NCBI GenBank assembly: GCA_041661545.1 | Contig: JBAZUH010000001.1 | Coordinates: forward strand, 211,877-275,876 | Origin: Candidatus Staskawiczbacteria bacterium | Lineage (GTDB): Bacteria; Patescibacteriota; Minisyncoccia; Minisyncoccales; Staskawiczbacteraceae | Direction: 5' to 3' | DNA length: 64,000 nucleotides | Part shown: positions 9,285-42,369 of the stretch, piece after piece | Position numbering within the stretch: the stretch's first letter is position 1 | Layout: each line of letters starts with the position of its first letter | The notes under the pieces: model-generated | The model's database searches: none | The model's input: the letters and a program-made list of their open reading frames with translations, nothing else | Told to the model about the DNA's origin: nothing | Translations under genes and position numbers: made by a program

Positions 9285-9296
9285 ATTTTATTCAGT

Positions 9297-10969: not shown

Positions 10970-14016
<3,047 letters not shown>

Positions 14017-19015: not shown

Positions 19016-19120
19016 AGCGAGGCAGTCAATTTTCAGCGTATTTCAGGACACAAAGTGCCTGACCAAGCCATTTAGACGCGAAGCGTATCAATGGCGTTAG
19101 CAGAAAATTGACTGCCGAGC
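19016..19120 (+). repeat. R element copy 1 (105-bp structured repeat with 14-bp terminal inverted repeats)
   Basis: ggcagtcaattttc...gaaaattgactgcc termini. It differs at 4 positions from the copy at 57024-57128. Confidence 0.85.
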
Positions 19121-19126
19121 GAAAAA

Positions 19127-20232: not shown

Positions 20233-20610
20233 TTAAATTTTTTGTTTACGGAATTTTATAAGGCCTACAATAATTGGTAGTATCAGTGTAGTTATATAAT
20301 ATAAATATACATCTAGCTTATAATACCCATCGGCTGGCTTAAACAATAACACTAAGAATAGATAATCCAATATAACTGCTATTACTGTCCAAACAACTCC
20401 TAATCCAAAATAGCACTGCAAAGAATCTCTATTAATTTTCTTAAACAAAACCCAAAGAGTTATTATTATTCCAATAGGTGAAACAACCCAGCCAATCATG
20501 TTTACGGGAACTACCATAAAGGCAACAATTCCTAACACCCAACCAATAAACCAAAGCCCAATGCCCCACACCACTGAATTTTTTAAAATTTTTAATTTTT
20601 CTTTTTCCAT
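20233..20610 (-). CDS. small membrane protein
   Basis: 125-aa ORF with four hydrophobic helices. Confidence 0.6.
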   Translation of the reverse strand: MEKEKLKILKNSVVWGIGLWFIGWVLGIVAFMVVPVNMIGWVVSPIGIIITLWVLFKKINRDSLQCYFGLGVVWTVIAVILDYLFLVLLFKPADGYYKLDVYLYYITTLILPIIVGLIKFRKQKI

Positions 20611-20637
20611 AAATTTTTTTTAAATTAATTATAGAAA

Positions 20638-21387: not shown

Positions 21388-21402
21388 AATTTTTATTTTT
21401 AT

Positions 21403-22443
21403 TTATATTACTAAAAAATTCGTTATTATTTTTACTAATTTTTCTTTTTCCGACCTGTCGCTCACCGCAATCAAAAGCGCAAGCGCAGTAAGCGCGTTAT
21501 CATTAATTTTCTTTTCACCGTTTTCTTTATAAGAGTAATTACTCTTATCTAAAAAGTATGCAAACAGAAATGAGGCAATCCTTTTATTACCATCAACAAA
21601 TGGATGGTCTTTAATAATAAAATAAAGCAAATGCGCCGCTTTTTCCTCTATAGATGGATAAAGTTCTCTTTTATCAAAAGTTTGGTAAATATTCCCAACA
21701 ATGCCCTTTAATTTTTCGCTGTTTTCTTGCCCAAACAATTCGCTTGCCTCTTTTTTAGCAACAAGGCTTTTCTTAATTTCTTCAATAACATTTGATGCAC
21801 ATGCATAGTTTAAAACAAATTTACCCCTTCCTCGCTTTACCAGAGAAACTTTTTCTGTATCATACTGCTCAAGCAAGGTTAAAGTTTTTGAGTAATCACT
21901 CAATAAACTTAAAATTTCCTGCTCTTGCCCAGCCATCAACTCGTGACCAGCTTTCTTTTGTAAAAAGTCGATAGTGCTTTGTAATTCTCTAAATTTATTC
22001 TTGGTATCAAGCAGTCTTTTATCATTTATTGCATAACCCTTCACTAAATAATCTTTTAAGGTCTTAGTAGCCCAAATTCTGAATTGCGTAGCCCTTTTGG
22101 AATTAACCCTATAGCCAACCGAAATAATCGCATCCAAATTATAAAATTTGACATTTTGTTTTTGCGTTTTACCCTTAATGGCACCATGTCTAGTGGTATG
22201 TTCCAAAATGGAACTAACCACTTTTTCGTCCAATTCTTTGCTTTTAAAAATATTCTTGAGGTGCTTGGTTATTGCTGGTCTCTGCGTACCAAAAAGAAGC
22301 GCAATTTTGTCTTGCGTAAGCCAAATAGTTTCTTTATCTAAAGAAATATCAATCCTTATTCTTTTATCTGATGTTTTATAAATAACAATTTCTCCCCGCC
22401 CCTTTGAAGCCTTGCTCGAAAGAAGATTTTCTTTCTTTGACAT
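21403..22443 (-). CDS. RhuM-like N-terminal domain fused to a Fic/Doc domain
   Basis: 346-aa ORF. The N-terminal FYNLDAIISVGYRVNSKRATQFRIWAT is RhuM-like, and the C-terminal HPFVDGNKR is the Fic/Doc active-site motif. Confidence 0.7.
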   Translation of the reverse strand: MSKKENLLSSKASKGRGEIVIYKTSDKRIRIDISLDKETIWLTQDKIALLFGTQRPAITKHLKNIFKSKELDEKVVSSILEHTTRHGAIKGKTQKQNVKFYNLDAIISVGYRVNSKRATQFRIWATKTLKDYLVKGYAINDKRLLDTKNKFRELQSTIDFLQKKAGHELMAGQEQEILSLLSDYSKTLTLLEQYDTEKVSLVKRGRGKFVLNYACASNVIEEIKKSLVAKKEASELFGQENSEKLKGIVGNIYQTFDKRELYPSIEEKAAHLLYFIIKDHPFVDGNKRIASFLFAYFLDKSNYSYKENGEKKINDNALTALALLIAVSDRSEKEKLVKIITNFLVI

Positions 22444-22511
22444 TTCAATTATTTTTTATTATTTTAATTATTTTATTATATAACAACTAAAAAACTATCT
22501 CAATAATATAC

Positions 22512-22558
22512 AAAAAAAGGCCACGTTTCGCTAGGCTGTTGCTTTTGCGAAACGTGGC
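22512..22558 (-). terminator. terminator of cassette 5
   Basis: 12-bp perfect stem gccacgtttcgc/gcgaaacgtggc followed by a T7 run on the minus strand. Confidence 0.7.
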
Positions 22559-22583
22559 ATGATAGGCTCACTGAGCCGTGTTC

Positions 22584-23507
22584 TTACTTGCCCTTCTTCG
22601 GCGGACGGGGCTTCTTCCGTCGCGCGGTGAGCTTGGTGGCGGGCGCAGGCGCTTCGGGTGAAGCGGGCGCTTCGGCTACCAACTGCCATTCAGGACTCAG
22701 TCCATCCGGAGTGGGAACTTCAGCGACCGGAGGCTGCTCAGCCGACTCGGAAGTCGGCGGAGCGGGTTGCTCGGGAACAGGCTCGGTGGGCGGCTGAGCG
22801 GTGGGCTCGGGCGTAGGTGCTTGCGGTTCCCAACGAGAGGCTTCGGGAAAAGGCCCTGGGAAAAGACCTCCGCTTCCAAACAGAACTTCGAATGGGTCGG
22901 AACGGCGGGGTTCCCCAAAGAACTCCGGACGGAGACGACCACGCGCATCCATAAATCCGGGCGGATATGGGGATGGCGGTGGACCATACATGTCGCCAAA
23001 AAGGCTGTCGAGGCCCGCCAAAGCGCCGAGATTCATGGCGCCAAGGTCTATGACCGTGATCTCCGGCTCAATGGCCACGATGTGCCACCACTTCTTCACG
23101 GCCAGTGTCCGTTTCTCAAAACTTGCCATGGCGCACTGCTGGGGGAAGACTTCCTTGATCCCCCTCCACAAGAGACGGTTAAGGATAGTCAATTCCTCTT
23201 GCACGATGTCTAGTTCGGCGACCGATCGGCTCATGCGCTTTTTGATGTCGGCACCATTGGCCAGAACCATGGAAAATTCGTCCATCAAACGCATCTGGCA
23301 ATAGCCCCCTATGCTTTCCACTTCTCGCATGCAGATCGCTCTAAGCGTTGCCACCGCCTTCAAATGGTTCGGCAAAATGCCGATGAAGGTATCACCTTCC
23401 TGGATAAGCCCTTGGGGCTCTTCATACTCGGCGGCAGGCATGGTCTCAATCCTGTCAAGCAGAGCTCGCAGAAATCTCGTCGTTACGCTTCCCTTTGGTT
23501 GTTTCAT
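22584..23507 (-). CDS. hypothetical protein with a Pro/Ala-rich C-terminal tail (cassette 5)
   Basis: Start taken at MKQPKGS (ATG). One sample stretch is 45 of 60 nt GC. The C-terminus is low complexity (PEPTAQPPTEPVPEQPAPP) and ends in KKPRPPKKGK. Confidence 0.55.
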   Translation of the reverse strand: MKQPKGSVTTRFLRALLDRIETMPAAEYEEPQGLIQEGDTFIGILPNHLKAVATLRAICMREVESIGGYCQMRLMDEFSMVLANGADIKKRMSRSVAELDIVQEELTILNRLLWRGIKEVFPQQCAMASFEKRTLAVKKWWHIVAIEPEITVIDLGAMNLGALAGLDSLFGDMYGPPPSPYPPGFMDARGRLRPEFFGEPRRSDPFEVLFGSGGLFPGPFPEASRWEPQAPTPEPTAQPPTEPVPEQPAPPTSESAEQPPVAEVPTPDGLSPEWQLVAEAPASPEAPAPATKLTARRKKPRPPKKGK

Positions 23508-23598
23508 GGCTTCAATTCGGTTGTTCGTGGGGTTGGTTTGGTTTTTCAGTTTCCGCAAACGCGCGGAAACTAAAAGTCACCTTTTAGGTGCTACAAAT

Positions 23599-23627
23599 AC
23601 CTTATCACACAAAAAATATAGTGTCAA
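23599..23627 (-). promoter_or_regulatory. promoter of cassette 5
   Basis: Minus strand TTGACA, 17 nt, TAAGGT. The leader has cacct/aggtg and gtttccgc/gcggaaac hairpins. Confidence 0.5.
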
Positions 23628-23676
23628 TATGACTAAAATAAATAAAAAGCCGCCTCAAAGAAACGGCTAATATATT

Positions 23677-23955
23677 TTAATTAAATTTTTTGTTCCACCT
23701 TTCTAATGTGGGAATTGGGCGGGTTGCAAGCCAAGCAAAAAACCCATTCATCCCAGCTTTTTTCATTTGTTCAATACAAAATTTTTGAAATTTTTCGGCA
23801 GTATCAATTTCTGGAGGATTCAAAAATAATCCATTTTCATAGCACATAGAACAATACTTGGCACTTTTTGACCCGTCTTTTTCGCTCCCACCCCCTTTTT
23901 TATCTTTATTTAGTGGAAACCCACAACTTTGACAAAACTTGTATATTTTTTCCAT
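23677..23955 (-). CDS. zinc-ribbon domain protein
   Basis: 92-aa ORF with CQSCGFPL and YCSMCY Cys pairs. Confidence 0.6.
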   Translation of the reverse strand: MEKIYKFCQSCGFPLNKDKKGGGSEKDGSKSAKYCSMCYENGLFLNPPEIDTAEKFQKFCIEQMKKAGMNGFFAWLATRPIPTLERWNKKFN

Positions 23956-23977
23956 AAATTTCTTTGATAATTAATTA

Positions 23978-24547
23978 TTAAAATTCTTGAATATGATATA
24001 CTCCCCTGTCATTTGTTGGAGCATACAGCCCCTCTACAAAATCTTTGGATGAATCTCTTAAAAATGGCTCCACCTTCTTTACAGCACAATTCTTACAGAA
24101 ATAAACGGGCATAGATGATATTTTTCTAAAATGCGGGAATTCATAATCTTCTTTATTAAAATATGCAACTGTTGCCCTTGAGCCACATTTTTTACATACC
24201 TTTCCTTTAATATTATCTAAAATATTAGAAACATTACCTTGATCTTCTTTCGTATATTGCCATTCTTTTAATTTATCTACTGTTGCATATAAATATCCAT
24301 ATGGATAATGAACAAAATCTGGCTCTATAATCATTATGTCATAGTTAGATGAAGTAAAATCTTTTTCCCATCTTTCTAATAAATGATTTTTGCAAAATGA
24401 TATAATATTGTCTTTTTCATCTCTGTATATATCTTTAGTGTCGCTACCACAAACAGCACATTTTGCTGGTTTCAAAGCAAACTTAATAAATGCCCAAATA
24501 GCCACGCCTACAACTAAAACAATAATAATCCCTGTTAAAATATCCAT
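23978..24547 (-). CDS. membrane-anchored double zinc-ribbon protein
   Basis: Start taken at MDILTGIIIVLVV. Cys pairs are CAVCGS...FCKNH and CKKCGS...FCKNC. The tracked ORF extension reads through the repeat at 24557. Confidence 0.55.
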   Translation of the reverse strand: MDILTGIIIVLVVGVAIWAFIKFALKPAKCAVCGSDTKDIYRDEKDNIISFCKNHLLERWEKDFTSSNYDIMIIEPDFVHYPYGYLYATVDKLKEWQYTKEDQGNVSNILDNIKGKVCKKCGSRATVAYFNKEDYEFPHFRKISSMPVYFCKNCAVKKVEPFLRDSSKDFVEGLYAPTNDRGVYHIQEF

Positions 24548-24556
24548 ATATTTTTT

Positions 24557-24609
24557 CAGGTTGCCCCTGCCTACGCCAAGGCTACGGCGAGGCAAGCATG
24601 GGCAACCTG
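24557..24609 (+). repeat. intercistronic GC-rich hairpin repeat, copy 1
   Basis: caggttgccc...gggcaacctg 10-bp outer stem enclosing tgcctacgcc-aaggctac-ggcgaggca. Confidence 0.85.
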
Positions 24610-24614
24610 ACACG

Positions 24615-24866
24615 TTAATTATTTTTTTTGATCCACCAATTTTTAAATAAAGAAATTGAAAATGTTGAAATAACAAATCCCAAGGTTGGCACAATGGCAT
24701 TTGCAAAAGGTTTTTCCAGTTTTGCAAAATAGAAAAAAATTACAATAACAATATAGGTTAAAACCGCAACCAAAATTTTCCGCGCCCAGCTTGTTTCCCA
24801 CGCCTTGTCTTGCTCAACTTTTTTGTTTCTTTCTTTTATTAAATTAATTTCTTTCTCAAAATCCAT
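24615..24866 (-). CDS. small two-TM membrane protein
   Basis: 83-aa ORF. Confidence 0.55.
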   Translation of the reverse strand: MDFEKEINLIKERNKKVEQDKAWETSWARKILVAVLTYIVIVIFFYFAKLEKPFANAIVPTLGFVISTFSISLFKNWWIKKNN

Positions 24867-24876
24867 AATTTTATTT

Positions 24877-24935
24877 CCTCAGGTTGCCCCTGCCTACGCC
24901 AAGGCTACGGCGAGGCAAGCATGGGCAACCTGAGG
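24877..24935 (+). repeat. intercistronic GC-rich hairpin repeat, copy 2
   Basis: cctcaggttgcccc...gggcaacctgagg. The interior is identical to copy 1. Confidence 0.85.
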
Positions 24936-24940
24936 TGTTT

Positions 24941-25237
24941 TTAGTTTTTAAATTGAATTACATTAAGACCTTTTTCTATTATTTCTTTTTCTTGGCCAAA
25001 ACTGTCAATTTTAAAATTTAAAACAAAATCAACCTTTTTCTCAATTTTTCTGCCAGTATATTGTTTTGTTTTAGGATTCCACTCTTCTAAAATTAACGTG
25101 TCGCCTTTTTGCACATCAAAATCTGCCAAGCGCAACTCAAACCTCTTTTCTCCTGATATGACCTTTTCAAAATACTCCGGCCAACATTTCCTTCGCCAGG
25201 CCGTAGCCTTGTGCGTAGGCTGGTTCTTTATTTCCAT
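24941..25237 (-). CDS. ASCH/DUF3850-like domain protein
   Basis: Start taken at MEIKNQ. CWPEYFEKVISGEKRFELRLADFDVQKGDTLILEEW is ASCH-like. Confidence 0.6.
   Translation of the reverse strand: MEIKNQPTHKATAWRRKCWPEYFEKVISGEKRFELRLADFDVQKGDTLILEEWNPKTKQYTGRKIEKKVDFVLNFKIDSFGQEKEIIEKGLNVIQFKN
25194..25223 (+). repeat. GC-rich repeat inside the ASCH CDS (encodes KATAW)
   Basis: cgccaggccgtagccttgtgcgtaggctgg. The core gccgtagcc-ttg-gcgtaggc is shared with the intercistronic repeats. Confidence 0.55.
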
Positions 25238-25246
25238 ATTATTTTT

Positions 25247-25299
25247 CAGGTTGCCCCCGCCTACGCCAAGGCTACGGCGAGGCAAGCATGGGCAACCTG
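25247..25299 (+). repeat. intercistronic GC-rich hairpin repeat, copy 3
   Basis: caggttgcccccgcctacgccaaggctacggcgaggcaagcatgggcaacctg. Confidence 0.85.
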
Positions 25300-25326
25300 G
25301 CGAATTTTTATATATTGTTGAATTTT

Positions 25327-27171: not shown

Positions 27172-28752
27172 ATGCAAACATTAACAAAAAAACAAAAACA
27201 AGTTTTCGATTTTATTAATGAATACATATTAGAGAATGGTATCTCCCCTACTTTTGAAGAAATCCGAAAAACACTTGGACTAAAAGCCATATCTACTATA
27301 CATGAACACGTGGGCACGCTTAAAAAGAAGGGCTATCTTGCAAAAGATATAAATTCAATCCGAAACATAACCCCCAAAAAATCCATACGAATAATTATAG
27401 ATATTCCCATTGTGGGGAAAATTGCAGCTGGCAAACCAATAGAGGCCATAGAAGATAACTTGCAAGAAATTATATCTATATCAAATCCAACTATAAAAAG
27501 CTCGAAAGATTATTATGCACTCCGCGTAACTGGCGACAGCATGATTGGCGAAGGCATATTTGATGGCGATATAGTAATAATCAAAAAACAATCTGTAGCT
27601 GAAAATGGGCAAACCGTGGTAGCAATCATAGACGACAACGAGGCCACTCTTAAAAAACTTTATCGAGAAAAAAATAGATTCCGCTTAGAGCCAAGGAATC
27701 CAAGCATGCTCCCTTTTTTTAGAAAAGAAGTTGAAGTCAGGGGGGTAGTTGTTCAAGTAATTAGCAATATTCCTAATAAACCAAAAGAAAAAATATCAAA
27801 AAAGACTAAACACGGATTTAAAACTATTGATCTTTTTGCTGGAATTGGCGGAATACGTATTGGTTTTGAGAGGGCTGGCTTTGAAACAGTTTTTGCAAAT
27901 GACTTTGACGAACCATGCAAAATAACTTACGATTTTAATTTTCCTAGAGTAAAATTAGTGGCTGAAGATATAAGAAAAATCGGCTTAGATGATATTCCTA
28001 AATTTGATTTTTTATTAGGAGGCTTTCCTTGCCAGGCATTTTCTATCGCTGGATATAGAAAAGGATTCAATGACGAAAAAGGACGTGGAAATTTATTTTT
28101 TGATATAGCAAAAATTATTGAAGATAAAAAACCGGAAGGATTTCTTTTAGAAAATGTTAAAAATTTAAAAAGCCACGACGAAGGAAAAACTTTTAAAATA
28201 ATCGAAGAAACTTTAAAAAATTTAGGCTATTATCTAAATGTAAAAATTTTAAACAGCATGGAATATGGCAATATTCCACAAAATAGAGAGAGAATTTATA
28301 TAGTGGGCTTTAAAAATAAAAACTACGCAGATAATTTTAATTTTCCAGAACCAAGAAAACTTACTAAAAAAATTATCGATCTACTCGAGGACAATGTTGT
28401 TGAAAAATATTATTATAACGGCAAACCCCTGTTTGAGAAGCTAAAAAATTTCATAAAAGAGGAAGGAAAAGTTTATCAATGGCGCAGACAATATGTCCGC
28501 GAAAATAAAAGCGGAGTTTGCCCAACATTAACCGCAAATATGGGAATGGGCGGACACAATGTGCCAATTATAAAAGATAAAAAAGGTATAAGAAAACTTA
28601 CCCCTTTAGAGTGCTTTAGAATACAGGGTTTTCCAGAAAACTTTAAACTTCCGCAAATATCAGATTCTTCTCTATACAAGCAAGCTGGAAATTCTGTGAG
28701 TGTTCCAGTTATAGAAGCCGTTGCCACTCAAATGATGAAGGCAATGTCATAA
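27172..28752 (+). CDS. LexA-like repressor (wHTH + S24 autopeptidase) fused to a DNA (cytosine-5) methyltransferase
   Basis: 526-aa single ORF. The N-terminus is LexA-like (LTKKQKQVFDFI...GISPTFEEI). KIAAGKPIEA is the Ala-Gly cleavage site, and GDSM (Ser) and TLKKL (Lys) are the catalytic residues. These are followed by MTase motifs DLFAGIGG (I), GGFPCQAFS (IV), ENVKNL (VI), QNRERIYIVG (VIII) and GNSVSVPV (X). Confidence 0.85.
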   Translation: MQTLTKKQKQVFDFINEYILENGISPTFEEIRKTLGLKAISTIHEHVGTLKKKGYLAKDINSIRNITPKKSIRIIIDIPIVGKIAAGKPIEAIEDNLQEIISISNPTIKSSKDYYALRVTGDSMIGEGIFDGDIVIIKKQSVAENGQTVVAIIDDNEATLKKLYREKNRFRLEPRNPSMLPFFRKEVEVRGVVVQVISNIPNKPKEKISKKTKHGFKTIDLFAGIGGIRIGFERAGFETVFANDFDEPCKITYDFNFPRVKLVAEDIRKIGLDDIPKFDFLLGGFPCQAFSIAGYRKGFNDEKGRGNLFFDIAKIIEDKKPEGFLLENVKNLKSHDEGKTFKIIEETLKNLGYYLNVKILNSMEYGNIPQNRERIYIVGFKNKNYADNFNFPEPRKLTKKIIDLLEDNVVEKYYYNGKPLFEKLKNFIKEEGKVYQWRRQYVRENKSGVCPTLTANMGMGGHNVPIIKDKKGIRKLTPLECFRIQGFPENFKLPQISDSSLYKQAGNSVSVPVIEAVATQMMKAMS

Positions 28753-28754: not shown

Positions 28755-29642
28755 TTACTCTACGAACTCTATTTTAATGCTGTTTATTTTATCAATTTCG
28801 TTCTTTAAATATGCGGGTCCGATGTCTTTATCTCTTAGGTTCACCCCTTGATGAATAAAAGATGTCGTAATTTTTAAAGCCATATCACTATCAACCCACT
28901 TTTTAGGCTTGAGCCTTAGCTCCAATCTCTTTTTGGCTTTATAAATTTTTGCATTACCAAGTTCGTTATCTATAAAATTATCTAAAAATACAGATTTGCT
29001 TGTGGTCCTATTTTTATTGATGTCAACTAGTTGTATTTTATTTAAATCTAAAACGGCACCTGAAAAATAAAAATCTGCGCCCTGAATTTGTGTACTGGGA
29101 CGAAGTATAAACAAATAGTATATTTTTTGGATTGGATAATTTCTATTTAATGATTTATATTTTTCGAAAAGCAAGCTCATCCATTGGTCTTTAATTTTCT
29201 TATAATTCTTTTTTTCAAACATTTGATCCAGGTCAATGCCTGGGCCTTCAAATTTTTGCCCAAGCGAAGCCTCTCCACTATCGCGAGAGGACACATCACC
29301 TGTTGGTGTAAGACTAATATTCAGCATCTTAATATCTGCACCCCAATGTTCGCGCTCATTATAAATATCTATTGGATATGACCCAGCGCCTACGGGTTTG
29401 ACATCAAGCGCTTGCGTGAACCATTGTTCTATATGCTCTTTTGGTATTTGAATAGGAAGTATTTTTTGCCCAATTTTTGGTTCTGGCTGAGAAAACAACG
29501 ATTTAATCAAAAAATATTTTATAATTTTTTTTGATTTTTCGTCTAAAAATCCCAACAATTCATTTTTTGACAAAGGATTAACGACATATTTTTTTAATTT
29601 CGAAGACTTATTTTTTACTGTCATATATTTTTTCAGTTTCAT
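28755..29642 (-). CDS. candidate type II restriction endonuclease (PD-(D/E)XK-like)
   Basis: 295-aa ORF lying tail-to-tail, 2 nt from the methyltransferase stop. YPIDIY...GADIKML fits a PD...D-x-K core. No family name could be assigned by eye. Confidence 0.45.
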   Translation of the reverse strand: MKLKKYMTVKNKSSKLKKYVVNPLSKNELLGFLDEKSKKIIKYFLIKSLFSQPEPKIGQKILPIQIPKEHIEQWFTQALDVKPVGAGSYPIDIYNEREHWGADIKMLNISLTPTGDVSSRDSGEASLGQKFEGPGIDLDQMFEKKNYKKIKDQWMSLLFEKYKSLNRNYPIQKIYYLFILRPSTQIQGADFYFSGAVLDLNKIQLVDINKNRTTSKSVFLDNFIDNELGNAKIYKAKKRLELRLKPKKWVDSDMALKITTSFIHQGVNLRDKDIGPAYLKNEIDKINSIKIEFVE

Positions 29643-29699: not shown

Positions 29700-29732
29700 T
29701 CCCGCCCCAGCGGAATCCCCGCTGGGGCGGGA
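29700..29732. repeat. GC-rich perfect hairpin (tcccgccccagcgg-aatc-cccgctggggcggga)
   Basis: Related to the in-CDS elements at 49043 and 57784 (cccgcc...gcgggatcccgc...ggcggg). Confidence 0.7.
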
Positions 29733-30151: not shown

Positions 30152-30186
30152 AAAAAGGGGCGGGTGCAATGCGCCCGCCCCTTTTT
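30152..30186. terminator. bidirectional intrinsic terminator
   Basis: ggggcggg...cccgcccc stem flanked by A5 and T5 runs. Confidence 0.65.
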
Positions 30187-30231
30187 GTGATTTGATAGAT
30201 TTTATTGTTGATTGTGTTGTTGTGGTGGTTT

Positions 30232-30525
30232 TTAAACAAAAGATATATTTAGATCTAAGCCTAAAGCATTCGCAATTTTTTCGAGTGTATCCATAGAAAA
30301 ATTTTGCTGACCCGACTCCATTCTGGCAATATTGCTTTGCTTTGTACCTATTTTCTTTGCCAATTGTGCCTGTGACATGCCCTTTCTTTTTCTTAGTTGC
30401 AAAATTTGATAAGCAACTTCAAGTTGCCTGCCATATTCATCAAAACGCTTCTTAAACTCGGGGTTTTTTAACTCTTTTTTTAGTAAATCATCAAAGTCAA
30501 CTGCTTTGTATATTTTTTTATTCAT
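30232..30525 (-). CDS. XRE-family HTH protein (HigA-type antitoxin-like)
   Basis: 97-aa ORF. MSQAQLAKKIGTKQSNIARMESG is the HTH motif. Confidence 0.75.
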   Translation of the reverse strand: MNKKIYKAVDFDDLLKKELKNPEFKKRFDEYGRQLEVAYQILQLRKRKGMSQAQLAKKIGTKQSNIARMESGQQNFSMDTLEKIANALGLDLNISFV

Positions 30526-30622
30526 ATATTTTAGGATTATTTAATACATCTTCGACGGGGCTTTCACCATTTCTTGAATTCTTATAAAGTTTTACTTTGT
30601 ACTCTATATTTAAGTATATCAT
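30518..30622 (-). pseudogene. truncated HigB/Gp49-like toxin remnant (34 codons)
   Basis: Hand translation gives MIYLNIEYKVKLYKNSRNGESPVEDVLNNPKIYE*. The YxVxxYxxxxGxSPVxDxL pattern matches the N-terminus of Gp49/HigB-type toxins. The stop overlaps the antitoxin start. Confidence 0.5.
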
Positions 30623-30724
30623 ATATGATATTATTATGTCAATAGCTAACTATTTCAATCAACTATTATATTAATTTTAAGCCTAAAAGAAATGGCTTTC
30701 AAGCCCTTGGATTAAATTTAATCA

Positions 30725-30762
30725 AAAACCCTCAGGTTGCCCGTGGGCAACCTGAGGGTTTT
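30725..30762. terminator. bidirectional terminator hairpin sharing termini with the 24557-type repeats
   Basis: ccctcaggttgccc-gt-gggcaacctgaggg flanked by A and T runs. Confidence 0.7.
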
Positions 30763-30796
30763 TATAATTACTAGATTTTTTTGTAATTGCTAGGTT

Positions 30797-31573
30797 TTAT
30801 TGTTGATTGGGTTGTTGTGGTGATTTTTTGTCGCCAAAGCCTTCAAAGGCTCGTAAAACTTCTAATGGAACCGCAAACACAATTGTGTTTGATTGGTCTG
30901 AGCTTATATCGTTAATAGATTGCAAAGTTCTCAAATGCAAGGCACCTTTTGACCCGCCCAAAATATTTGCTGCTTTTGCCATGTTGTCGGCGGAAACAAC
31001 TTCTCCCTCGGCTTTTATAATCATTGCTCTTTTTTCTCTTTCGGCCTCGGCTTGTTTTCCAATTACCCTTTTCATTTCTTCTGGCAAAACAATATCTTTT
31101 AATTCTACATTTTGAACTTTAATTCCCCATGGATCCGAAGCTTCATCTACAATGGTTCTAATGCTTTCTGAAACTTTGTCTCTTTGGCTTAACAAAGTGT
31201 CTAAATCAACTTGCCCCACGGCGTTTCGCATTGTTGTTTGAGCCAACTGCGAAATTGCATAATAAAAATTTTCTACTTCTAAAAGTGCCTTTGAGGCATC
31301 TTGAACTTTATAATAAATAACTGCGTTTACCCCAACAGATATGTTGTCTTTGGTAATTGCCTCTTGATTAGGCACATCAACTGCTTTTACTCTTAAATCT
31401 ATTTTTTTGAATGATTGAAAAACAGGCCAAACCAATCTCCAGCCTGGCTCCATCATGCCTATATATTTTCCTAAACCAAACTTAACTCCTTTTTCGTATT
31501 GATTAACTTGTTTTATAGAACCCAAGATAATCATAATTACTACAAACACTATTGGATAAATAAATTCTGTCAT
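30797..31573 (-). CDS. SPFH/band-7 (stomatin-prohibitin-like) membrane protein
   Basis: 258-aa ORF with an N-terminal TM helix and an SPFH core, including AEAEREKRAMIIKAEGE. Confidence 0.85.
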   Translation of the reverse strand: MTEFIYPIVFVVIMIILGSIKQVNQYEKGVKFGLGKYIGMMEPGWRLVWPVFQSFKKIDLRVKAVDVPNQEAITKDNISVGVNAVIYYKVQDASKALLEVENFYYAISQLAQTTMRNAVGQVDLDTLLSQRDKVSESIRTIVDEASDPWGIKVQNVELKDIVLPEEMKRVIGKQAEAEREKRAMIIKAEGEVVSADNMAKAANILGGSKGALHLRTLQSINDISSDQSNTIVFAVPLEVLRAFEGFGDKKSPQQPNQQ

Positions 31574-31647
31574 ATTATTATATGTTAATTATATTATATA
31601 TTTTTACTCTACGCCTAAAAATTAAATTTGGCAAGTAATGTCTATTT

Positions 31648-31700
31648 ATCCCTCAAAAATGGTAGCACTTTTCGTGTCGAAAAGCGCTATTTTTGGGGAT
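31648..31700 (+). repeat. E element copy 1 (53 nt)
   Basis: atccctcaaaaatggtagcacttttcgtgtcgaaaagcgctatttttggggat, 8 nt from terminator D1. Confidence 0.8.
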
Positions 31701-31708
31701 TTTCGTTT

Positions 31709-31746
31709 AAAAAAAGAGCCCAAGGTTGCAGGTGCAACAAGGGGCA
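31709..31746 (-). terminator. terminator D1 (38-bp unit identical to D2)
   Basis: The minus strand reads tgccccttgttgcacctgcaaccttgggctcttttttt, starting 8 nt after the rSAM stop. Confidence 0.75.
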
Positions 31747-31754
31747 CAGAAATA

Positions 31755-33128
31755 TTATATTTGTTTATAAACGTCCCAAATTAACCAATTAAGCACTCCC
31801 AGCGAGTGTTTGCAAAACTTATCGTCAATAGCCCAAATTGTTCCATGCTTAAGAAATGCACTGTAGGCACACCCCCCTCCGCATAAACCAAGTGATGGAC
31901 AATTGAAGCATTGAGGCATTGTAAGCGGGGACCGCCTGCCCCATTCTTGAATTAGAAGATGGTCTGAAAAAATAAAATCTTTAGAAACTTTTCCAAAAAA
32001 GGAATTGCCGCAGCCTACTCCTTCGTGGCAAATGCCCAAAGACCCGTTTGGCGAGATAGCAAGTTGTGCGCCAGTAGCACGACAATCAAAAGGGTGAAGA
32101 ACGCCCTTGCCAATTGCTCTAACTTTGCGCATTATTCTATCTTCGTATAGTCCAATTTCTCGTGCTTTTTCAAAATATTCTAACATTCGCGTTGTAGCAT
32201 GTTCGGTGTAAGAAGCATCAACCATGCGCTCTGCGGTATCTAGCATTAAGTTAAAGTTAACCGTCTGAAATTGATATTGCTGGTGCAAAGTAAGCAGTTC
32301 GTCTAGCTTATCAACGTTGTGCTCGTCAATTGTTGCCGAGATGTTGATGTCTTTACGACCCGCACAATGCAAAAGCTCAATTCCTCTAGTTATGTCGCAG
32401 AAAGTTCCCTTTCCGCCACAATAAACCCTTTTCTGATCGTTAGTTTCTTGAAGTCCATCAAGCGAAACGCAGATTGTGATTTCTGGATGTTGCGCTAAAT
32501 AGCCAGCAATTTCTTCTGTGATCTTTGTTCCGTTGGTAATAAGCAATAAACCGATTTTGAACTCGGCCAGCTCCTTGCCATAATTGTCGTGGATGTATCC
32601 GACGATTTGTTTTATTAACGGGAAAGCAAGCAAGGGCTCACCACCGTAAAAAACGATCGTCTTGTGAAACTTTGTTGGCTTGATATTGGCGAAATACATG
32701 TCAACAGCCTCTTTTGCTATATCCCAGGTCATCGCCTTACTGCCTTTGCATTGTTCTGGCATGTTGCCGTTTATCATGCAATAATGGCACGCCAGATTAC
32801 ACATATCCGTAAGTAGTATAAAAATTGTCTCAAGCGTTGGCTGATAAACATACGTTTTTTGTTTTTCACGCAAAACGCAGTCATCGTCATATTCAACAGG
32901 TACAACCAATTGTTGCTCAATTAATTCAGCAACGATATCATCGACATCATCACCAAACTGACGTAAGTGTTCAAGTGTTGTACCTAATCGCAACTCATTT
33001 AGCAAATCAGCATAGCGCTCCTCTAAAAATAGAAGCGACAAACATAGCGAGTGAAAAACTGCATACGCACCATTTTTTTGTATTACGTGCGTCCATTTAG
33101 ATAATCGAATTGCCTTGTTATCATTCAT
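31755..33128 (-). CDS. radical SAM/SPASM peptide maturase with an N-terminal RRE (PqqD-like) domain
   Basis: 457-aa ORF with the CNLACHYC (CxxxCxxC) cluster and a C-terminal SPASM Cys pattern (CFNCPSLGLCGGGCAYS...CKH). The N-terminal 90 aa or so look like a peptide-recognition element. Confidence 0.8.
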   Translation of the reverse strand: MNDNKAIRLSKWTHVIQKNGAYAVFHSLCLSLLFLEERYADLLNELRLGTTLEHLRQFGDDVDDIVAELIEQQLVVPVEYDDDCVLREKQKTYVYQPTLETIFILLTDMCNLACHYCMINGNMPEQCKGSKAMTWDIAKEAVDMYFANIKPTKFHKTIVFYGGEPLLAFPLIKQIVGYIHDNYGKELAEFKIGLLLITNGTKITEEIAGYLAQHPEITICVSLDGLQETNDQKRVYCGGKGTFCDITRGIELLHCAGRKDINISATIDEHNVDKLDELLTLHQQYQFQTVNFNLMLDTAERMVDASYTEHATTRMLEYFEKAREIGLYEDRIMRKVRAIGKGVLHPFDCRATGAQLAISPNGSLGICHEGVGCGNSFFGKVSKDFIFSDHLLIQEWGRRSPLTMPQCFNCPSLGLCGGGCAYSAFLKHGTIWAIDDKFCKHSLGVLNWLIWDVYKQI

Positions 33129-33174
33129 GATTCTATTTCTTTCTTGGTTGAGGTTTAAGACAGCTAATAAATTG

Positions 33175-33211
33175 GTGGGGTGGCGCTATCCATTGGACCG
33201 CGCCACCCCAC
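33175..33211 (-). terminator. 12-bp GC hairpin between precursor and maturase (putative attenuator)
   Basis: gtggggtggcgc/gcgccaccccac stem 20 nt after the precursor stop, followed by only a weak U-tract. Confidence 0.5.
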
Positions 33212-33231
33212 GAAGAAAGTCGTGCGACCGA

Positions 33232-33333
33232 TTAGTGGCACGAACACCCGCAGGCGCAATTCTGCGCCAACAGCACCGAGGTGCTGATGTTTCCGGCAAC
33301 ACGATCCAAGTGATGTTTAGTTACCTTCTTCAT
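33232..33333 (-). CDS. 33-aa Cys-rich RiPP precursor candidate (not in ORF track)
   Basis: Hand translation gives MKKVTKHHLDRVAGNISTSVLLAQNCACGCSCH*. A GAAAGGAG Shine-Dalgarno lies 5 nt upstream of the ATG, and the ORF sits directly upstream of the rSAM gene. Confidence 0.65.
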   Translation of the reverse strand: MKKVTKHHLDRVAGNISTSVLLAQNCACGCSCH

Positions 33334-33466
33334 CGCTACTCCTTTCTAACCTATTGTCTTTTGTTGGTTTTTTGACTGAGAATCCGCGCGGACACTCAAT
33401 TAACAACATGATCCAAAAACTAACTTGGACAACTAGGATTTTGCATTGATTTCAAAGAGCAATTTA

Positions 33467-33494
33467 ATCTTAGCACTATATTTTATTCTGTCAA
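33467..33494 (-). promoter_or_regulatory. promoter of the precursor-maturase module
   Basis: Minus strand TTGACA, 16 nt, TAAGAT. Confidence 0.45.
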
Positions 33495-33509
33495 TTTTAT
33501 TTTAATTAC

Positions 33510-33547
33510 AAAAAAAGAGCCCAAGGTTGCAGGTGCAACAAGGGGCA
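33510..33547 (-). terminator. terminator D2 (identical to D1)
   Basis: Same 38-bp sequence as 31709-31746, starting 8 nt after the stop of the small TM gene. Confidence 0.75.
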
Positions 33548-33555: not shown

Positions 33556-33738
33556 CTAGCTGTCCTTACTGCCGTTATTGGGCAACGGTTTAAGAACAAA
33601 AAAATACAAAACAATCGTAGCAACTAATGCTGTTAAGATATAGACGTCGTAGGACTGCACGGTCCAATTTTCAAGGCCCATTAGCTCGCCTAAATATATG
33701 CAAATTCCCAAAAAGACTACTGCAAGGAGCGTTCTCAT
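33556..33738 (-). CDS. small two-TM membrane protein
   Basis: Start taken at MRTLLAVVFLG (60 aa). The upstream part of the tracked ORF overlaps the preceding gene. Confidence 0.45.
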   Translation of the reverse strand: MRTLLAVVFLGICIYLGELMGLENWTVQSYDVYILTALVATIVLYFFVLKPLPNNGSKDS

Positions 33739-33757
33739 ATTTTTTTGCTTTCTTTTC

Positions 33758-34027
33758 TTATCTCTCAGGCGAAACCACAACAGCAACTTCATTATTACTA
33801 TCAGTAACCATATCCGCCCACCGCGCTGGTCTCCCATCGATGGTATATGAATATGCAAAGGTTCTGAACCGGTGACCATCATGAATGCTAGTTGTGACAA
33901 TGTCGCTGATGGTCATCCAACCATTTAACTCAACTTCTAAGGTAGCACCAGGAATGACTAGTTTAATCTTCTTTATGGCAACAGCCACCTCATCATTCTC
34001 GGGAGCAACATCTCGATTTTCTTTCAT
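33758..34027 (-). CDS. small beta-grasp-like (ThiS/MoaD-like pattern, no terminal GG) protein, paralog 2
   Basis: 89-aa ORF. The C-terminus YTIDGRPARWADMVTDSNNEVAVVVSPER is paralogous to that of the upstream ORF. Confidence 0.5.
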   Translation of the reverse strand: MKENRDVAPENDEVAVAIKKIKLVIPGATLEVELNGWMTISDIVTTSIHDGHRFRTFAYSYTIDGRPARWADMVTDSNNEVAVVVSPER

Positions 34028-34048: not shown

Positions 34049-34258
34049 TTATTCCGAGGGAAGGAGGGTGACGACTACCTGGTCATTATCGAAAGTAACC
34101 TCCGTTTCCATATCGGCCCTTCTGCCGTCTATGGTCAATTCACAACGGTCGGCGATTTCTTCCAGGTGAGCTACCTTGATTATCGATCCAGCCCTTACAA
34201 TGCCATATATGGTTACTGGCGTTGTACCTCTCGGCGACACAACTTGAATTTGTTTCAT
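34049..34258 (-). CDS. small beta-grasp-like protein, paralog 1
   Basis: Start taken at MKQIQVVSPRG (69 aa). The C-terminus is LTIDGRRADMETEVTFDNDQVVVTLLPSE. An AAAGGA motif lies 7 nt upstream of the start. Confidence 0.5.
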   Translation of the reverse strand: MKQIQVVSPRGTTPVTIYGIVRAGSIIKVAHLEEIADRCELTIDGRRADMETEVTFDNDQVVVTLLPSE

Positions 34259-34373
34259 GGTTTTGTCCTTTCGTAAATTGGGAAAGAGCAAGTGGCTACT
34301 TATCTTTAGTATATCCTACCACAATTTATTATTTTGTAAATAAAAGCACCCGTTTACTGAGTGCTTTTATTTT

Positions 34374-36067: not shown

Positions 36068-36912
36068 ATTATCCTCTAGAAACCTAGAGTTGATGTTCCC
36101 ACCGTACGAGCGGATTTCCCGCATACGGCGAGCTCTAATGCATTTTTTGTTTAATAAGATATAATCTTTTTAAACCAGAACTTGTCAAATGTTCTTTTTT
36201 CTTAATCCTTTTCATTATTTCGCAAAAAATTTTAAAATCGTATGCTTTTGATTTTAAATTTAATTTATTGCGCTTAAAAAATGGAATAATAGTTTCTTCT
36301 AAATCATTTCTATTTGTTACTTCGTATCGGTAACAATTTTGATGGTTTAGCCGTGTATCTTTTTGAAAATACACGTTTCCGCATTCAAAATATTTTTTCA
36401 AATCATATAAAATATCTTTATCTTTTTCTATGAGTTTGATATAAAATCTTGGTTCGGCTTTAACTCTTCTTTCATTTTCTAATTTTTTTGCCGGATTTTT
36501 AATATAAACAGTGAAGCTTCCTTCACCATCTATTAATCCAACAATATAATTAGGATTAAGTGACTTGTTAGAGAGATTCCTTGGCATAATATACTATATT
36601 ATGTTTAATATGAATCAGCTGACTTCTGACGCAGCGTTAGTAGTTTCATTATACTACGTCAGATCTCCCCGGGTCAATATATTTTCTTTTCCTGACATCC
36701 TTAGCTAGGCGTTGTGGTATGTTCTTCACTATGCTCACCGCCGATCATAGCTCGAACGCCTATTTTTATGCTAGGGCTACCATTTGTCGCAAAACCCTCT
36801 GGCGTCTACCTCGCGGTAGTTCGCCTGTTTGTTGACTACTCTCTGTTGAGTCTTAACAACAGAGGAAAAGATTTTAACTTTTTAGAAAATATACCTGCCG
36901 GGCGCGTTTATT
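36068..36912 (-). mobile_element. intron/intervening sequence in 16S rRNA at about E. coli position 1399/1400
   Basis: Exon 1 ends ...GAATACGTTCCTGAGTCTTGTACTCAC and exon 2 resumes CGCCCGTCAAGCC. The insertion splits the universal 1392-1406 block and carries a homing-endonuclease ORF. Confidence 0.85.
36135..36587 (-). CDS. LAGLIDADG homing endonuclease (single-motif type)
   Basis: 150-aa ORF inside the 16S intron. YIVGLIDGEGSF is the LAGLIDADG motif. Confidence 0.85.
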   Translation of the reverse strand: MPRNLSNKSLNPNYIVGLIDGEGSFTVYIKNPAKKLENERRVKAEPRFYIKLIEKDKDILYDLKKYFECGNVYFQKDTRLNHQNCYRYEVTNRNDLEETIIPFFKRNKLNLKSKAYDFKIFCEIMKRIKKKEHLTSSGLKRLYLIKQKMH

Positions 36913-37381
36913 GTGAGTACAAGACTCAGGAACGTATTCATCGCCACGTAGCTGATTGGCGATTACTAGCGATTCCAGCTTCATGAGGGCGAGTTTCAGC
37001 CCTCAATCCGAACTGAGATAGGTTTTGGTGCGATTAATCTCCGCCTTACGGCATCGAAGCGCATTGTACCTACCATTGTACCACGTGTGCGGCCCAGGTC
37101 ATCAAAGGGCCATGCTGATTTGGCGTCATCCTCGCCTTCCTCCCAATTATCTCGGGCAGTCCCCCGTGACATTTAAAACACAGGGCAAGGGTTGCGTTCG
37201 TTACCCGAATTAACGGTACGTCTCAAGACACGAACTGACGACAACCATGCAGCACCTGTCTGCACGTCTTGCGAGGGCTCTACTTTCATAAAGCTTTCGT
37301 GCAGATTTCCAGACCTGGTAAGGTTCTTCGCTTGTTGTCGAATTAAGCCACATGGTCCACCGCTTGTGTGAGTCCCCGTCT

Positions 37382-37413
<32 letters not shown>

Positions 37414-38530
37414 TCCCAGGCGGGATACTTAACGCGTTAGCTTCGCCACATGAAGGGTCGACACTTCATATAGCCAGTATCCATCGTTTACAGCGTGGAC
37501 TACAAGGGTATCTAATCCTTTTTGCTCCCCACGCTTTCGTTCCTCAGTGTCAGGATTGTCCTAGTGAACTGCCTTCGCTTTTGGTGTTCCCGACAATATC
37601 AACGGATTTCACCCCTACTCTGTCGGTTCCGTTCACCCCTAACATCCTCTAGTTTAGCAGTATTGAAAGCATCTCAAAGGTTAAGCCGATGAGTTTTAAC
37701 TTTCAACTTACTATACCACCTACGAACCCTTTACGCCCAATAAATCCGGGTAACGCTCGAGGATTCTGTATTACCGCTCCTGCTGGCACAGAATTAGGAT
37801 CCCCTTATTCATATGGTACTGTCTGGCTTGCGCCTTCCTCCCATATAAAAGAACTTTACACCCCTAAGGGCTTCATCATTCACGTAACGTCGCTCCGTCA
37901 GGCTTTCGCCCATTGCGGAAGATTCTCGACTGCAGCCTCCCGTAGGAGTATGGCCCGTGTCGCAGTGCCATTCTTGGGGGTCGCGCTCTCACGCCCCCTA
38001 CCCGTCATAGACTTGGTGAGCTATTACCTCGCCAACAATCTGATAGGCCGTAGGCCATTCCCAAATCGGCTTGCGCCTTTACCCTTGCGGGATTATGGAG
38101 AATTACCCCGTCTTTCGACGAGCTGTGCTCCAATTTGGGGTATGTACCCACGTGTTACTAAGCCGTTCGCCGGTTGCTATTGCTAGCCCCCTTGACTTGC
38201 ATGCCGGTATCCACGTTACCAGCGTTCACCCTGAGCTAGGATCAAACTCTCAAATAAAACATTTGATGTTTGAATTTCTAGTTATAGAATAAACTACTAA
38301 TGTGTGTCCCGCCTTCACTTAAGTGAAGGCGTGGACTAATTCGAAACAACTTTAAAAAACTAATTTTTGATTAAACTTTAATTTAATCAAACCTTTTGGT
38401 TGTTTACTATTTACTTATTTGCTGATTTTAAAAATGGTTTTAAAATCATGCTCATTATTTTCCTTTCCAAAACTTTTTTTTCAAAAATTGTTGGTAGGTT
38501 TATTTTTCAATTTTCTTTCCGTTCTGAATT

Positions 38531-40965: not shown

Positions 40966-41421
40966 TCAGCAATAGTGCTGACCTTCAAGAATGCGATACC
41001 CCCGACCCTCCTCAAAACGGACCGCCGCCAGCATTCTCTTTGCGTAAAGAGCAAACTCCTCATCACACAGTTCACCTGAATTATGCAATTGCCGGTAATG
41101 GTTCTTCGCCGCACCATCGTCGGCAGCAAGAAATCTACGAATTTTCTGTATCTGTTTTCCTCCTTCGCGCTGCCAGATGAAAAGTATATACCAATGTGGC
41201 CTTTGATCCACGCGTTCACATCTTAGCTTTGCGCGTTTATAGATATAACGCTTGATTATTTTATTGTTTCGCTTTAAAGTCGCGTGCTTTGGCTTCTTTT
41301 GCGAGATATAAAGTTTGAACAGATTCCTCGCTGCCCTATCTGACGAGCATTGAATCGTATGATAAAAAGAACAGCCATCGCGACGGCTACGATGTATACC
41401 ACTTATAATGTAGTGTTTCAT
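40966..41421 (-). CDS. two-domain small basic protein (type1-type2 fusion, cassette 8)
   Basis: 151-aa ORF. The N-terminal half is paralogous to 41455..41712 and the C-terminal half to 41943..42185 (HWYxLFxW...FLAxxDGAAK...FALYAxR...EGRGY...C). Confidence 0.55.
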   Translation of the reverse strand: MKHYIISGIHRSRRDGCSFYHTIQCSSDRAARNLFKLYISQKKPKHATLKRNNKIIKRYIYKRAKLRCERVDQRPHWYILFIWQREGGKQIQKIRRFLAADDGAAKNHYRQLHNSGELCDEEFALYAKRMLAAVRFEEGRGYRILEGQHYC

Positions 41422-41712: not shown

Positions 41713-41787
41713 AATTGTTCTTCGCTCCTTGTTTTGTAAAGGTTCTGATTGATGTTTTGGGCAACTCTTATGAGCATTGCCGATTTA

Positions 41788-41816
41788 TTCTTACCACAAG
41801 CTATTTTCAAAGTCAA
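41788..41816 (-). promoter_or_regulatory. duplicated promoter unit, copy 1 (cassette 8)
   Basis: Minus strand TTGACT, 17 nt, TAAGAA. The surrounding ~35 nt are nearly identical to 42311-42350. Confidence 0.45.
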
Positions 41817-41942
41817 AAAGCTTAACTAACATATCTCTGTAAAGCTAGTTCACATTTCAAGCGATAGCGTAAAATATGAACCTATATATTTATGGGAGAT
41901 TTTGTAGAAAAAAAGAGACGCGAACTTTCGTAAGCGCCATAT

Positions 41943-42185
41943 TCAACAACCATAGACACCATCCCAGATGAGATACCCGCGCCCCTCCTTAAATTTGGTT
42001 ACTGGCAACCGTCTGCGTGCATAGAGAGCAAAATCCTGACCAGGCACTAAACCATTCTTCTGCAACCGCCGACAATAGCGTTTCGCTGCACCATCATTGA
42101 CGGCAAGAAATTTACGAATTATCTCCACCCGTTTTCTTTTAATCCAATGCCAGGTGAACAGTGCATACCAGTGTCTTCTTTTCAT
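41943..42185 (-). CDS. small basic protein, type 2 (cassette 8)
   Basis: Start taken at MKRRHWYALFTW (80 aa). Confidence 0.5.
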   Translation of the reverse strand: MKRRHWYALFTWHWIKRKRVEIIRKFLAVNDGAAKRYCRRLQKNGLVPGQDFALYARRRLPVTKFKEGRGYLIWDGVYGC

Positions 42186-42316
42186 TTTTGTAAAGGTTCT
42201 GGTTGCAACTCCCGCCCCCGGCTCTAACGGCATTGCAAGACTGACCTCACACCTTAGTTCCACCATTTTTCAATGGTTATTGGTGAGAGGGATACTCTCA
42301 CGAGAGTTGCAATTTA

Positions 42317-42345
42317 TTATTACCACAAGCTATTTTCAAAGTCAA
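42317..42345 (-). promoter_or_regulatory. duplicated promoter unit, copy 2 (cassette 8)
   Basis: Minus strand TTGACT, 17 nt, TAATAA. Confidence 0.45.
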
Positions 42346-42369
42346 AAAAATATGTTATTATTTTTGAAT

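Follow-up and report, generated by a model that had tools for sequence, protein, structure and literature searches.

A pair of identical predicted terminators around a small peptide cassette of Candidatus Staskawiczbacteria and its possible origin by insertion-linked duplication

The 'morons' of phages HK97 and HK022, reportedly described by Juhala and colleagues in 2000, are said to be autonomous promoter-gene-terminator units inserted between two genes. A chromosomal unit of similar build is the subject of this study. It is a cassette for a ribosomally synthesized and post-translationally modified peptide (RiPP), which comprises one promoter, a precursor gene and the gene of a radical S-adenosylmethionine (rSAM) maturase. 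It lies in a stretch of 64,000 nucleotides from Candidatus Staskawiczbacteria bacterium (GCA_041661545.1, contig JBAZUH010000001.1, positions 211,877 to 275,876; called the window below, in whose coordinates positions are given unless a related locus is named) and is bracketed by two identical 38-nt sequences (38-mers). We lean towards explaining this pair as a duplication that accompanied the entry of the RiPP unit, from its promoter to its stop codon, at the end of a terminator T-tract. As with morons, the unit is compact and self-contained, has its own promoter and terminator, unrelated neighbours and a distinct composition, and occurs in varying contexts. However, it is chromosomal in a genome of the Patescibacteria and was not found on viral contigs, and a duplicated flank is outside the moron definition. 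Neither the module nor the 38-mer was present in the viral contigs, and carriage by phages was rejected, as the single rSAM match on those contigs was a distant one (25% identical).

Other described systems also share some of these features. Islands between the attL and attR sites of integrases consist of foreign DNA between direct repeats of tens of nucleotides, and at a related locus, L088, the repeat begins inside a tRNA 3' end. They differ from the present unit in that no integrase was found in or near it, that no att core is shared, and that the repeats often end in a terminator and not inside a tRNA gene. Between the repeats of the window lie the precursor and rSAM genes only, and no integrase or transposase domain was detected in the 33 window open reading frames (ORFs) scanned, mostly at 16-45 kb. 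An attachment site of the tRNA type was also rejected, because a tRNA gene is found at the repeat only in L088 and the repeat there lies mostly downstream of it. The known target-site duplications of transposons are 2-15 nt long and of fixed length. Here too host sequence was doubled at both sides, including fragments of upstream genes in other loci, but the repeat is 38 nt in the window and varies from 27 to 205 nt in relatives, and neither a transposase nor terminal inverted repeats were seen. Conserved cassette ends and an inverted-repeat pair across the two ends of the unit were likewise not found. Integron attC cassettes and the REP/BIME hairpins (repetitive extragenic palindromic sequences and bacterial interspersed mosaic elements) resemble the locus in having similar imperfect palindromes after successive unrelated genes. 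However, the RYYYAAC...GTTRRRY cores of attC sites are absent, the arms GTTGC...GCAAC do not fit in order or composition, the cassette carries a promoter of its own, and no integrase was found. The two copies of the 38-mer seen in 64 kb are too few to show a REP-like copy number. In the literature, no paper was found on this peptide family in Patescibacteria, nor on the duplication of a terminator at cassette insertions.

The 38-mer pair

The 38-mer AAAAAAAGAGCCCAAGGTTGCAGGTGCAACAAGGGGCA occurs in two exact copies, at 31709-31746 and 33510-33547. A third copy was absent from the window at up to three mismatches, and dinucleotide-preserving shuffles gave no match (0/100). The identity between the copies breaks off sharply on both sides, and a length of 38 nt was obtained both with the repeat finder and with a flank-versus-flank blastn comparison. 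On the minus strand, which is the coding strand for all genes at the locus, the sequence reads UGCCCCUUGUUGCACCUGCAACCUUGGGCUCUUUUUUU. Each copy starts 8 nt past a stop codon, i.e., that of the rSAM gene (31755-31757) and that of a gene for a small two-helix membrane protein (TM gene; 33556-33558), and the two 8-nt spacers are different and unrelated. A preliminary description, made from the letters of the DNA, had placed identical 38-mers without mismatch at these coordinates, each 8 nt after the stop of the rSAM or the small TM gene; the exact search of the window and the gene coordinates bear it out in both respects.

33510-33547, minus strand: copy 2 of the predicted terminator; hairpin and U7, 8 nt past the TM gene stop and 16 nt upstream of the -35 of the RiPP promoter
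31709-31746, minus strand: copy 1 of the predicted terminator; identical hairpin and U7, 8 nt past the rSAM stop, abutting the hairpin of a repeated element (E element) upstream of the SPFH gene

The predicted fold is GCCC-CUU-GUUGC-ACCU-GCAAC-CUU-GGGC followed by UCU7 (-13.7 kcal/mol, z = -2.7 to -3.5), that is, a hairpin with a stem of 4+5 bp, a 3x3 internal loop and a 4-nt loop. A simple terminator scan did not pick it up, presumably because of the internal loop. Judged by the stem-loop with its U-tract and by the position after a stop codon, the 38-mers are classed as two predicted copies of one Rho-independent terminator. Terminators of this class are known by a GC-rich stem-loop with a U-tract directly behind it, on the transcribed strand and shortly past a stop, as is the case here. 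The 3x3 internal loop sets the present one apart, and so does the fact that two 100% identical copies would serve two unrelated adjacent operons. After each copy, a promoter or the E element comes next. No Rfam family matched the terminator, the leader of the RiPP transcript or the E element.

The junctions of the module were also recovered from reads. A Logan contig (k=31) of SRR18595301, L001, is 1823 bp long and spans from copy to copy with a 30-nt overlap into each, and a second contig, L002, stops 30 nt inside the upstream copy. Both end 30 nt inside the repeat, which is where a k=31 graph has to break, so the graph branches there and both module junctions exist in the reads of SRR18595301, which may be the sample of origin of this metagenome-assembled genome (MAG). 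In exact-protein look-ups, the rSAM gene and orphan gene B (upstream of the TM gene) were found only in the source contig and the two Logan contigs ending at the repeat, and there was no record for SPFH or for two versions of the TM gene. Searches of genome, metagenome and viral collections gave no match to the 28-nt core of the 38-mer, a result with little bearing on the copy number within the genome, as the source genome is evidently outside these collections.

Direct repeats around related modules and other cassettes

The upstream and downstream flanks of related modules were compared by blastn in a census of direct repeats. With flanks of 600 nt, a repeat was present in 5/12 close loci. 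Flanking repeats were rare at random segments of 1.6-2.4 kb, being found around 6/599 in the other loci and 1/400 in the window, and three of the six positive segments straddle distant rSAM modules. Among all fetched loci, 16/132 rSAM genes were bracketed as against 1/110 matched pseudo-modules in the same loci (odds ratio 15, Fisher p = 5.6e-4). Twelve independent clean cases are listed below; the other four of the 16 are L128, a duplicate of L151, and the ambiguous L049, L073 and L080.

Window: repeat of 38 nt, 100% identity
L003: repeat of 113 nt, 91% identity
L088: repeat of 86 nt, 85% identity
L096: repeat of 81 nt, 90% identity
L094: repeat of 31 nt, 97% identity
L011: repeat of 45 nt, 98% identity
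L024: repeat of 131 nt, 97% identity
L107: repeat of 43 nt, 98% identity
L151: repeat of 47 nt, 98% identity
L134: repeat of 56 nt, 98% identity
L050: repeat of 27 nt, 100% identity
L023: repeat of 205 nt, 92% identity

The bracketing repeats, 27-205 nt long, are mutually unrelated in sequence. They are found just upstream of the promoter region of the module and just past its last gene. In five cases (window, L088, L011, L024, and L023) the repeat ends exactly at a terminator hairpin with its T-tract. Upstream genes contribute to some of the repeats: those of L024 and L023 include the 3'-terminal 22 and 145 nt, respectively, of the ORF upstream, and that of L088 the final 10 nt of tRNA-Trp. 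By itself, a copied piece of an upstream gene is without function, which points to a mechanism that duplicates the target and not to selection for a terminator. In most relatives a third gene follows the maturase gene; in the loci without it and with a readable downstream region (window, L003, and L088), repeats were found in all three, starting from 8-118 nt past the rSAM stop.

An assembly artefact, in which the module would have been joined into the contig through a short shared repeat, has to be considered here, since the break in the k=31 Logan graph coincides with the repeat. However, 38 nt is shorter than the largest k-mers of the usual metagenome assemblers, the module and the upstream genes are alike in their unusual composition, and the repeats in other assemblies are imperfect (85-98%) and therefore cannot be graph artefacts. 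Such an origin is barely credible.

Three further segments of the window are bracketed by direct repeats, of 39, 52, and 56 nt. The 52-nt repeat (30182-30233 and 30777-30828, 85-88% identical) is made up of the 3'-terminal 32 nt of the SPFH ORF and a further 20 nt, and brackets an Xre-type helix-turn-helix cassette (30234-30777) with its own promoter (30232-30723); each of its copies is followed by a different terminator hairpin. The 56-nt repeat, of the region just upstream of prfA (41764-41819 and 42294-42348), brackets 41820-42293 with a small GC-rich gene (41943-42266), a paralog of 40966-41421. The 39-nt repeat (20602-20639 and 23947-23985, 87% identical) holds a start codon and its upstream region, and brackets 3.3 kb of GC-richer DNA (20640-23946) with a RhuM/Fic gene and a Pro-rich ORF of 324 aa. 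One boundary lay within an A/T run of at least 5 nt in 4/4 window repeats and in 5/11 of the other loci, against a background of 10-12%, an excess which may be somewhat inflated by chance extension of the identity through such runs.

The window also contains repeated intergenic hairpins, and the 38-mer could thus be regarded as a member of a dispersed, REP-like terminator family, two members of which flank the module by chance without any link to insertion. A family with the arms CAGGTTGCCC...GGGCAACCTG has four sites in the window against 0.02 expected, and the 38-mer shares arm motifs with it. A 78-nt hairpin and a 33-nt palindrome each occur three times and the E element twice, and one terminator occurs four times in 6.6 kb of L088. 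On the other hand, the 38-mer has just two copies in 64 kb (up to three mismatches allowed), which are 100% identical and bracket exactly one transcription unit, whereas the members of the other window families are 83-95% identical. The lack of its 28-nt core from the sequence collections and the rarity of flanking repeats at random segments also argue against this explanation. A dispersed family is kept as a rival on account of the other repeated hairpins in the genome and of the copy search having covered 64 kb of the contig, but we regard it as rather improbable.

With regard to the members of these families, three 78-nt copies of the CAGGTTGCCC...GGGCAACCTG hairpin (24549-24626, 24872-24949, and 25239-25316) separate successive unrelated small genes, and the fourth site is the SPFH terminator (30724-30763). 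A 23-nt identical hairpin was found at the boundary of the RiPP-module repeat of L003 (4771-4793), which is a Taylorbacteria MAG. The 33-nt GC-rich palindrome, TCCCGCC...GGCGGGA, is at 29700-29732, 49044-49076, and 57785-57817.

The presence of one hairpin family at several cassette boundaries, and of a 23-nt identical hairpin at the boundary of the repeat of L003, which belongs to another class of Patescibacteria, would also be compatible with the hairpin being a recombination site (att- or attC-like, or an end of the IS200/IS605 type), at which the cassette would be mobilized in trans by a recombinase encoded elsewhere. However, none of the 33 ORFs scanned has an integrase or transposase domain, the repeats at other loci show no sequence relationship and in several cases do not form hairpins, conserved ends, terminal inverted repeats and the attC core order are all absent, and the cassette bears a promoter. 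The chance of this explanation being correct appears very slight.

The cassette, its relatives and its terminator

Read along the minus strand, the locus consists of the MscL gene with its own terminator, the orphan genes A and B, the TM gene, copy 2, promoter, leader, precursor, hairpin, maturase, copy 1, the E element, and the SPFH promoter and gene. The features other than the 38-mers are as follows.

34049-34261, minus strand: orphan gene A; no Pfam or NCBIfam match; GC content at third codon positions (GC3) 0.49
33758-34027, minus strand: orphan gene B, locus tag WC711_01280; no Pfam or NCBIfam match and no homolog but itself; GC3 0.38
33556-33741, minus strand: TM gene, 61 aa, at the 3' end of the upstream orphan operon; weak DUF4229 match; GC3 0.48
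33467-33494, minus strand: predicted sigma-70-type RiPP promoter, TTGACA, 16 nt, TG-n-TAAGAT; the relatives L003 and L088 align from the -35
33334-33466, minus strand: leader of about 130 nt, ending in the ribosome-binding site AGGAAAGGAG; alignable with L003, L088, L084, and L090
33232-33333, minus strand: 33-aa Cys-rich precursor MKKVTKHHLDRVAGNISTSVLLAQNCACGCSCH, conserved in 20 related loci, core NCACGCSC[H/W]
33172-33214, minus strand: strong hairpin in the precursor-maturase gap (-35 kcal/mol, z = -4.1)
31755-33128, minus strand: radical SAM/SPASM maturase, 457 aa; PF04055 at 3.4e-16
31643-31708, minus strand: E element, a hairpin of 23 bp with terminator copy 1 on one side and the SPFH promoter on the other
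30797-31573, minus strand: SPFH/slipin gene, PF01145; conserved host gene downstream of the cassette; GC3 0.28

The 1.8 kb between the copies had been described as containing one promoter, the 33-aa precursor, a hairpin and the maturase, and this agrees with the one strong promoter-like site and the -35 kcal/mol hairpin found there. A hairpin lies between precursor and maturase in every related locus, with differing sequences. The best NCBIfam model for the maturase was TIGR04136 'FibroRumin', matched over the full length with 250.7 bits, which is below the cut-off of 400 so that the equivalog level is not reached; PapB was next. The translation contains CNLACHYC (of the CxxxCxxC type) and a Cys-rich C-terminal region, CFNCPSLGLCGGGCAYS. 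From this domain, the Cys motifs and the adjacent conserved precursor, the enzyme is assigned to the radical SAM/SPASM RiPP maturase superfamily. As in the known systems of Cys-rich peptides with rSAM/SPASM enzymes (ranthipeptide/SCIFF-like; TIGR04136 'FibroRumin', PapB), a short precursor with a Cys-rich C-terminus adjoins the enzyme. The present system differs from them in the score under the TIGR04136 cut-off, in a clade specific to Patescibacteria and in the usual third gene, that of an HExxH protein, being missing here.

The counterparts of the leader are at about 3030-3193 of L003 and 375-533 of L088, with the alignment opening right at the -35. The leader may be a regulatory RNA; in the window it folds no better than shuffles. 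The E element is part of a unit of about 70 nt found at 31643-31715 and 63036-63108 (88% identical, with compensatory changes in the apical stem), and both copies come directly after the T-run of a terminator and precede a promoter -35 by about 20-45 nt, that of SPFH and that of an ftsZ with a Lys-rich N-terminus. SPFH itself is 80-88% identical over many Patescibacteria.

Homologs of the maturase, 57-80% identical, were found in about 20 other loci of Patescibacteria, each with the precursor. Their neighbours are always different, none having A, B, TM, MscL or SPFH nearby, and the TM gene is absent from all related RiPP loci. A third gene follows directly 3' of the maturase in 21/26 loci and fragments compared. 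It encodes an HExxH protein of about 213 aa without a Pfam or NCBIfam match, which is probably a peptidase, and it was accordingly rejected as a mobility gene. It is lacking in the window, L003, and L088, and two more contigs were too short or cut to judge. GC3 values of 0.39-0.41 were obtained for the module and of 0.38-0.49 for A, B, and TM, as against 0.16-0.28 for MscL, GreA, and SPFH. The foreign composition therefore covers the whole region of about 31.75-34.3 kb and extends beyond the 1.8 kb bracketed by the 38-mers.

The promoter and leader of the window are found also in L003 and L088, and each of these three loci has a terminator T-run at 2-16 nt upstream of the -35. As the similarity to the relatives opens at the -35 and closes at the stop codon, the inserted unit would extend from promoter to stop codon. 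Many of the contigs of the related loci L004, L084-L088, L090-L092, and L094 begin just 45-630 nt upstream of the precursor and run for kilobases downstream, which suggests that a repeat at which assemblies break, or a boundary that varies between strains, is located just upstream of the cassette. Truncated modules were seen in L046 (6001-6228) and L011 (4412-4972), from Azambacteria and Adlerbacteria MAGs, with the last 76 or 184 rSAM codons and an intact HExxH gene; the remnant in L011 is still flanked by the 45-nt terminator repeat. L095, a metagenome contig of 3,582 bp with two HExxH genes, the precursor and rSAM, has identical ends (1-112 and 3471-3582, 112 nt), and could represent a circle, a tandem copy or a cassette flanked by repeats.

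These comparisons raise the question whether the 38-mer is the module's own terminator. The unit would then have come in either as a circle or a concatemeric copy with terminal redundancy, or through homologous recombination of the Campbell type, and the repeat would be derived from the element. A hairpin with a T-run 3-10 nt past the rSAM stop was present in 19/19 related loci examined and is thus a constant part of the module. The 3' arm GCAACCTTGGG is like those of the post-rSAM terminators of L003 (GCAACCTGGGG) and L088 (AAACCTTCGGG), the two relatives which share the window's promoter and leader, and L095 fits a circle, a tandem or a repeat-flanked unit. However, the native terminator of the closest maturase relatives, of the form CACAAAA-CCCCTGC...GCGGGGG-T-run, is clearly different from the 38-mer which stands in its place in the window, and the AACCT..GGG arm is shared by a terminator without relation to the module, that of SPFH. 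Moreover, pieces of upstream host sequence are held by the repeats elsewhere (ORF 3' ends in L024 and L023, the tRNA-Trp end in L088) and by the Xre repeat of the window (the SPFH 3' end), so it was the target and not the element that was duplicated there. We consider an element-derived repeat unlikely, if still worth weighing.

Origin and meaning of the repeat pair

The preliminary description had proposed that the RiPP module was inserted into, or duplicated together with, a pre-existing terminator. This proposal has gained indirect support from the portability of the module, its foreign GC3, the excess of flanking repeats (16/132 against 1/110) and the uniqueness of the 38-mer pair in the window. 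In the explanation which we favour, 38 bp at the insertion point would have been duplicated as the minimal RiPP unit entered the end of the terminator T-tract, whether in this genome or already in a donor from which the entire GC-richer island came. The possible route could be the filling-in of a break with staggered ends during its repair, or a template switch made twice at short homologies, for which the T-tract on the left and CCCCT on the right (the start of the arm of the module's native terminator) are candidates. Both are proposed since they would fit the variable length of the repeats, the boundaries in A/T tracts and the lack of conserved ends; a dedicated recombinase is not evident. 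Retro-insertion of a transcript, with priming by its U-tract at an A/T tract, was set aside because the inserted unit includes its own promoter, which its transcript would lack.

As a result, copy 2 would end the orphan A-B-TM operon and shield the RiPP promoter 16 nt downstream, and copy 1 would end the precursor-maturase transcript and shield the E element and the SPFH promoter. The cassette would thereby gain a terminator and its neighbours would stay insulated. The perfect repeats could also delete the cassette again, and its loss by recombination between them is plausible.

Several points weigh against an insertion-linked duplication. No empty site was found among the loci searched: four SPFH orthologs (80-89% identical) share none of the neighbours of the window's SPFH gene, gene B is without homologs, and no relative with synteny from MscL to SPFH was retrieved. 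The search for copies covered 64 kb of a contig of 737,971 bp, and there are other repeated hairpin families in the genome, whose AACCT..GGG arm is shared by the 38-mer. With A, B, and TM foreign by GC3, the 'pre-existing' target terminator would not be ancestral host sequence. The likeness of the GCAACCTTGGG arm to L003 and L088 means that the terminator may have arrived with the module, and 38 identical bases cannot tell which copy is the older. Duplications of 27-205 nt are also far longer than those of known transposases, and no enzyme was identified which would make them.

A broader reading may be put forward only tentatively, and we hold it to be doubtful. Patescibacteria would gain small cassettes, such as the RiPP unit, the Xre module and orphan genes, by an undescribed route without a cassette-borne recombinase. 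The target would be duplicated over 27-205 nt, with junctions favouring A/T tracts such as the U-tract of a terminator, and excision would be reversible. The 38-mer pair would then be a fresh footprint of this route.

Some further features of the window were recorded. A dispersed intergenic repeat of 111 nt occurs twice with 95% identity (19016-19126 and 57024-57134), and an 82-nt inverted repeat, 87% complementary (5848-5929 and 9294-9375), flanks 3.4 kb with the PBP2 and MreC genes. A single ORF at 27172-28752 fuses LexA DNA-binding, S24 peptidase and C-5 cytosine methyltransferase domains and is convergent with a 295-aa ORF of unknown family (28755-29642), possibly a restriction partner. 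The rRNA genes are split, the 16S (36861-38257) being about 23 kb from the 23S and 5S (10776-14009), and a free-standing LAGLIDADG endonuclease gene (36135-36587) lies just downstream of the 16S gene.

The 38-mer pair alone is a modest curiosity, and if it were merely a reused terminator, the finding would be ordinary. The recurrence of long host-derived repeats around related cassettes makes it a useful lead. The signature, i.e., direct repeats derived from the host, often ending at terminators, around a biosynthetic cassette, is statistically supported, and it predicts empty-site reads (...GACAGCTAGTTCCATCA + 38-mer + AAACGAAAATCCCC) as well as reads across a circle or tandem junction (...AAATATAATATTTCTG + 38-mer + GTAATTAAAATAAAATTGACAG). 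Flanking repeats allow the limits of newly acquired cassettes in such genomes to be set in a simple manner, and in natural-product mining the signature marks a conserved unit of a Cys-rich peptide and a radical SAM enzyme that moves between lineages. In Patescibacteria, which have tiny genomes and in which the gain of accessory genes is little understood, a repeat signature without a mobility gene gives a concrete handle on this process.

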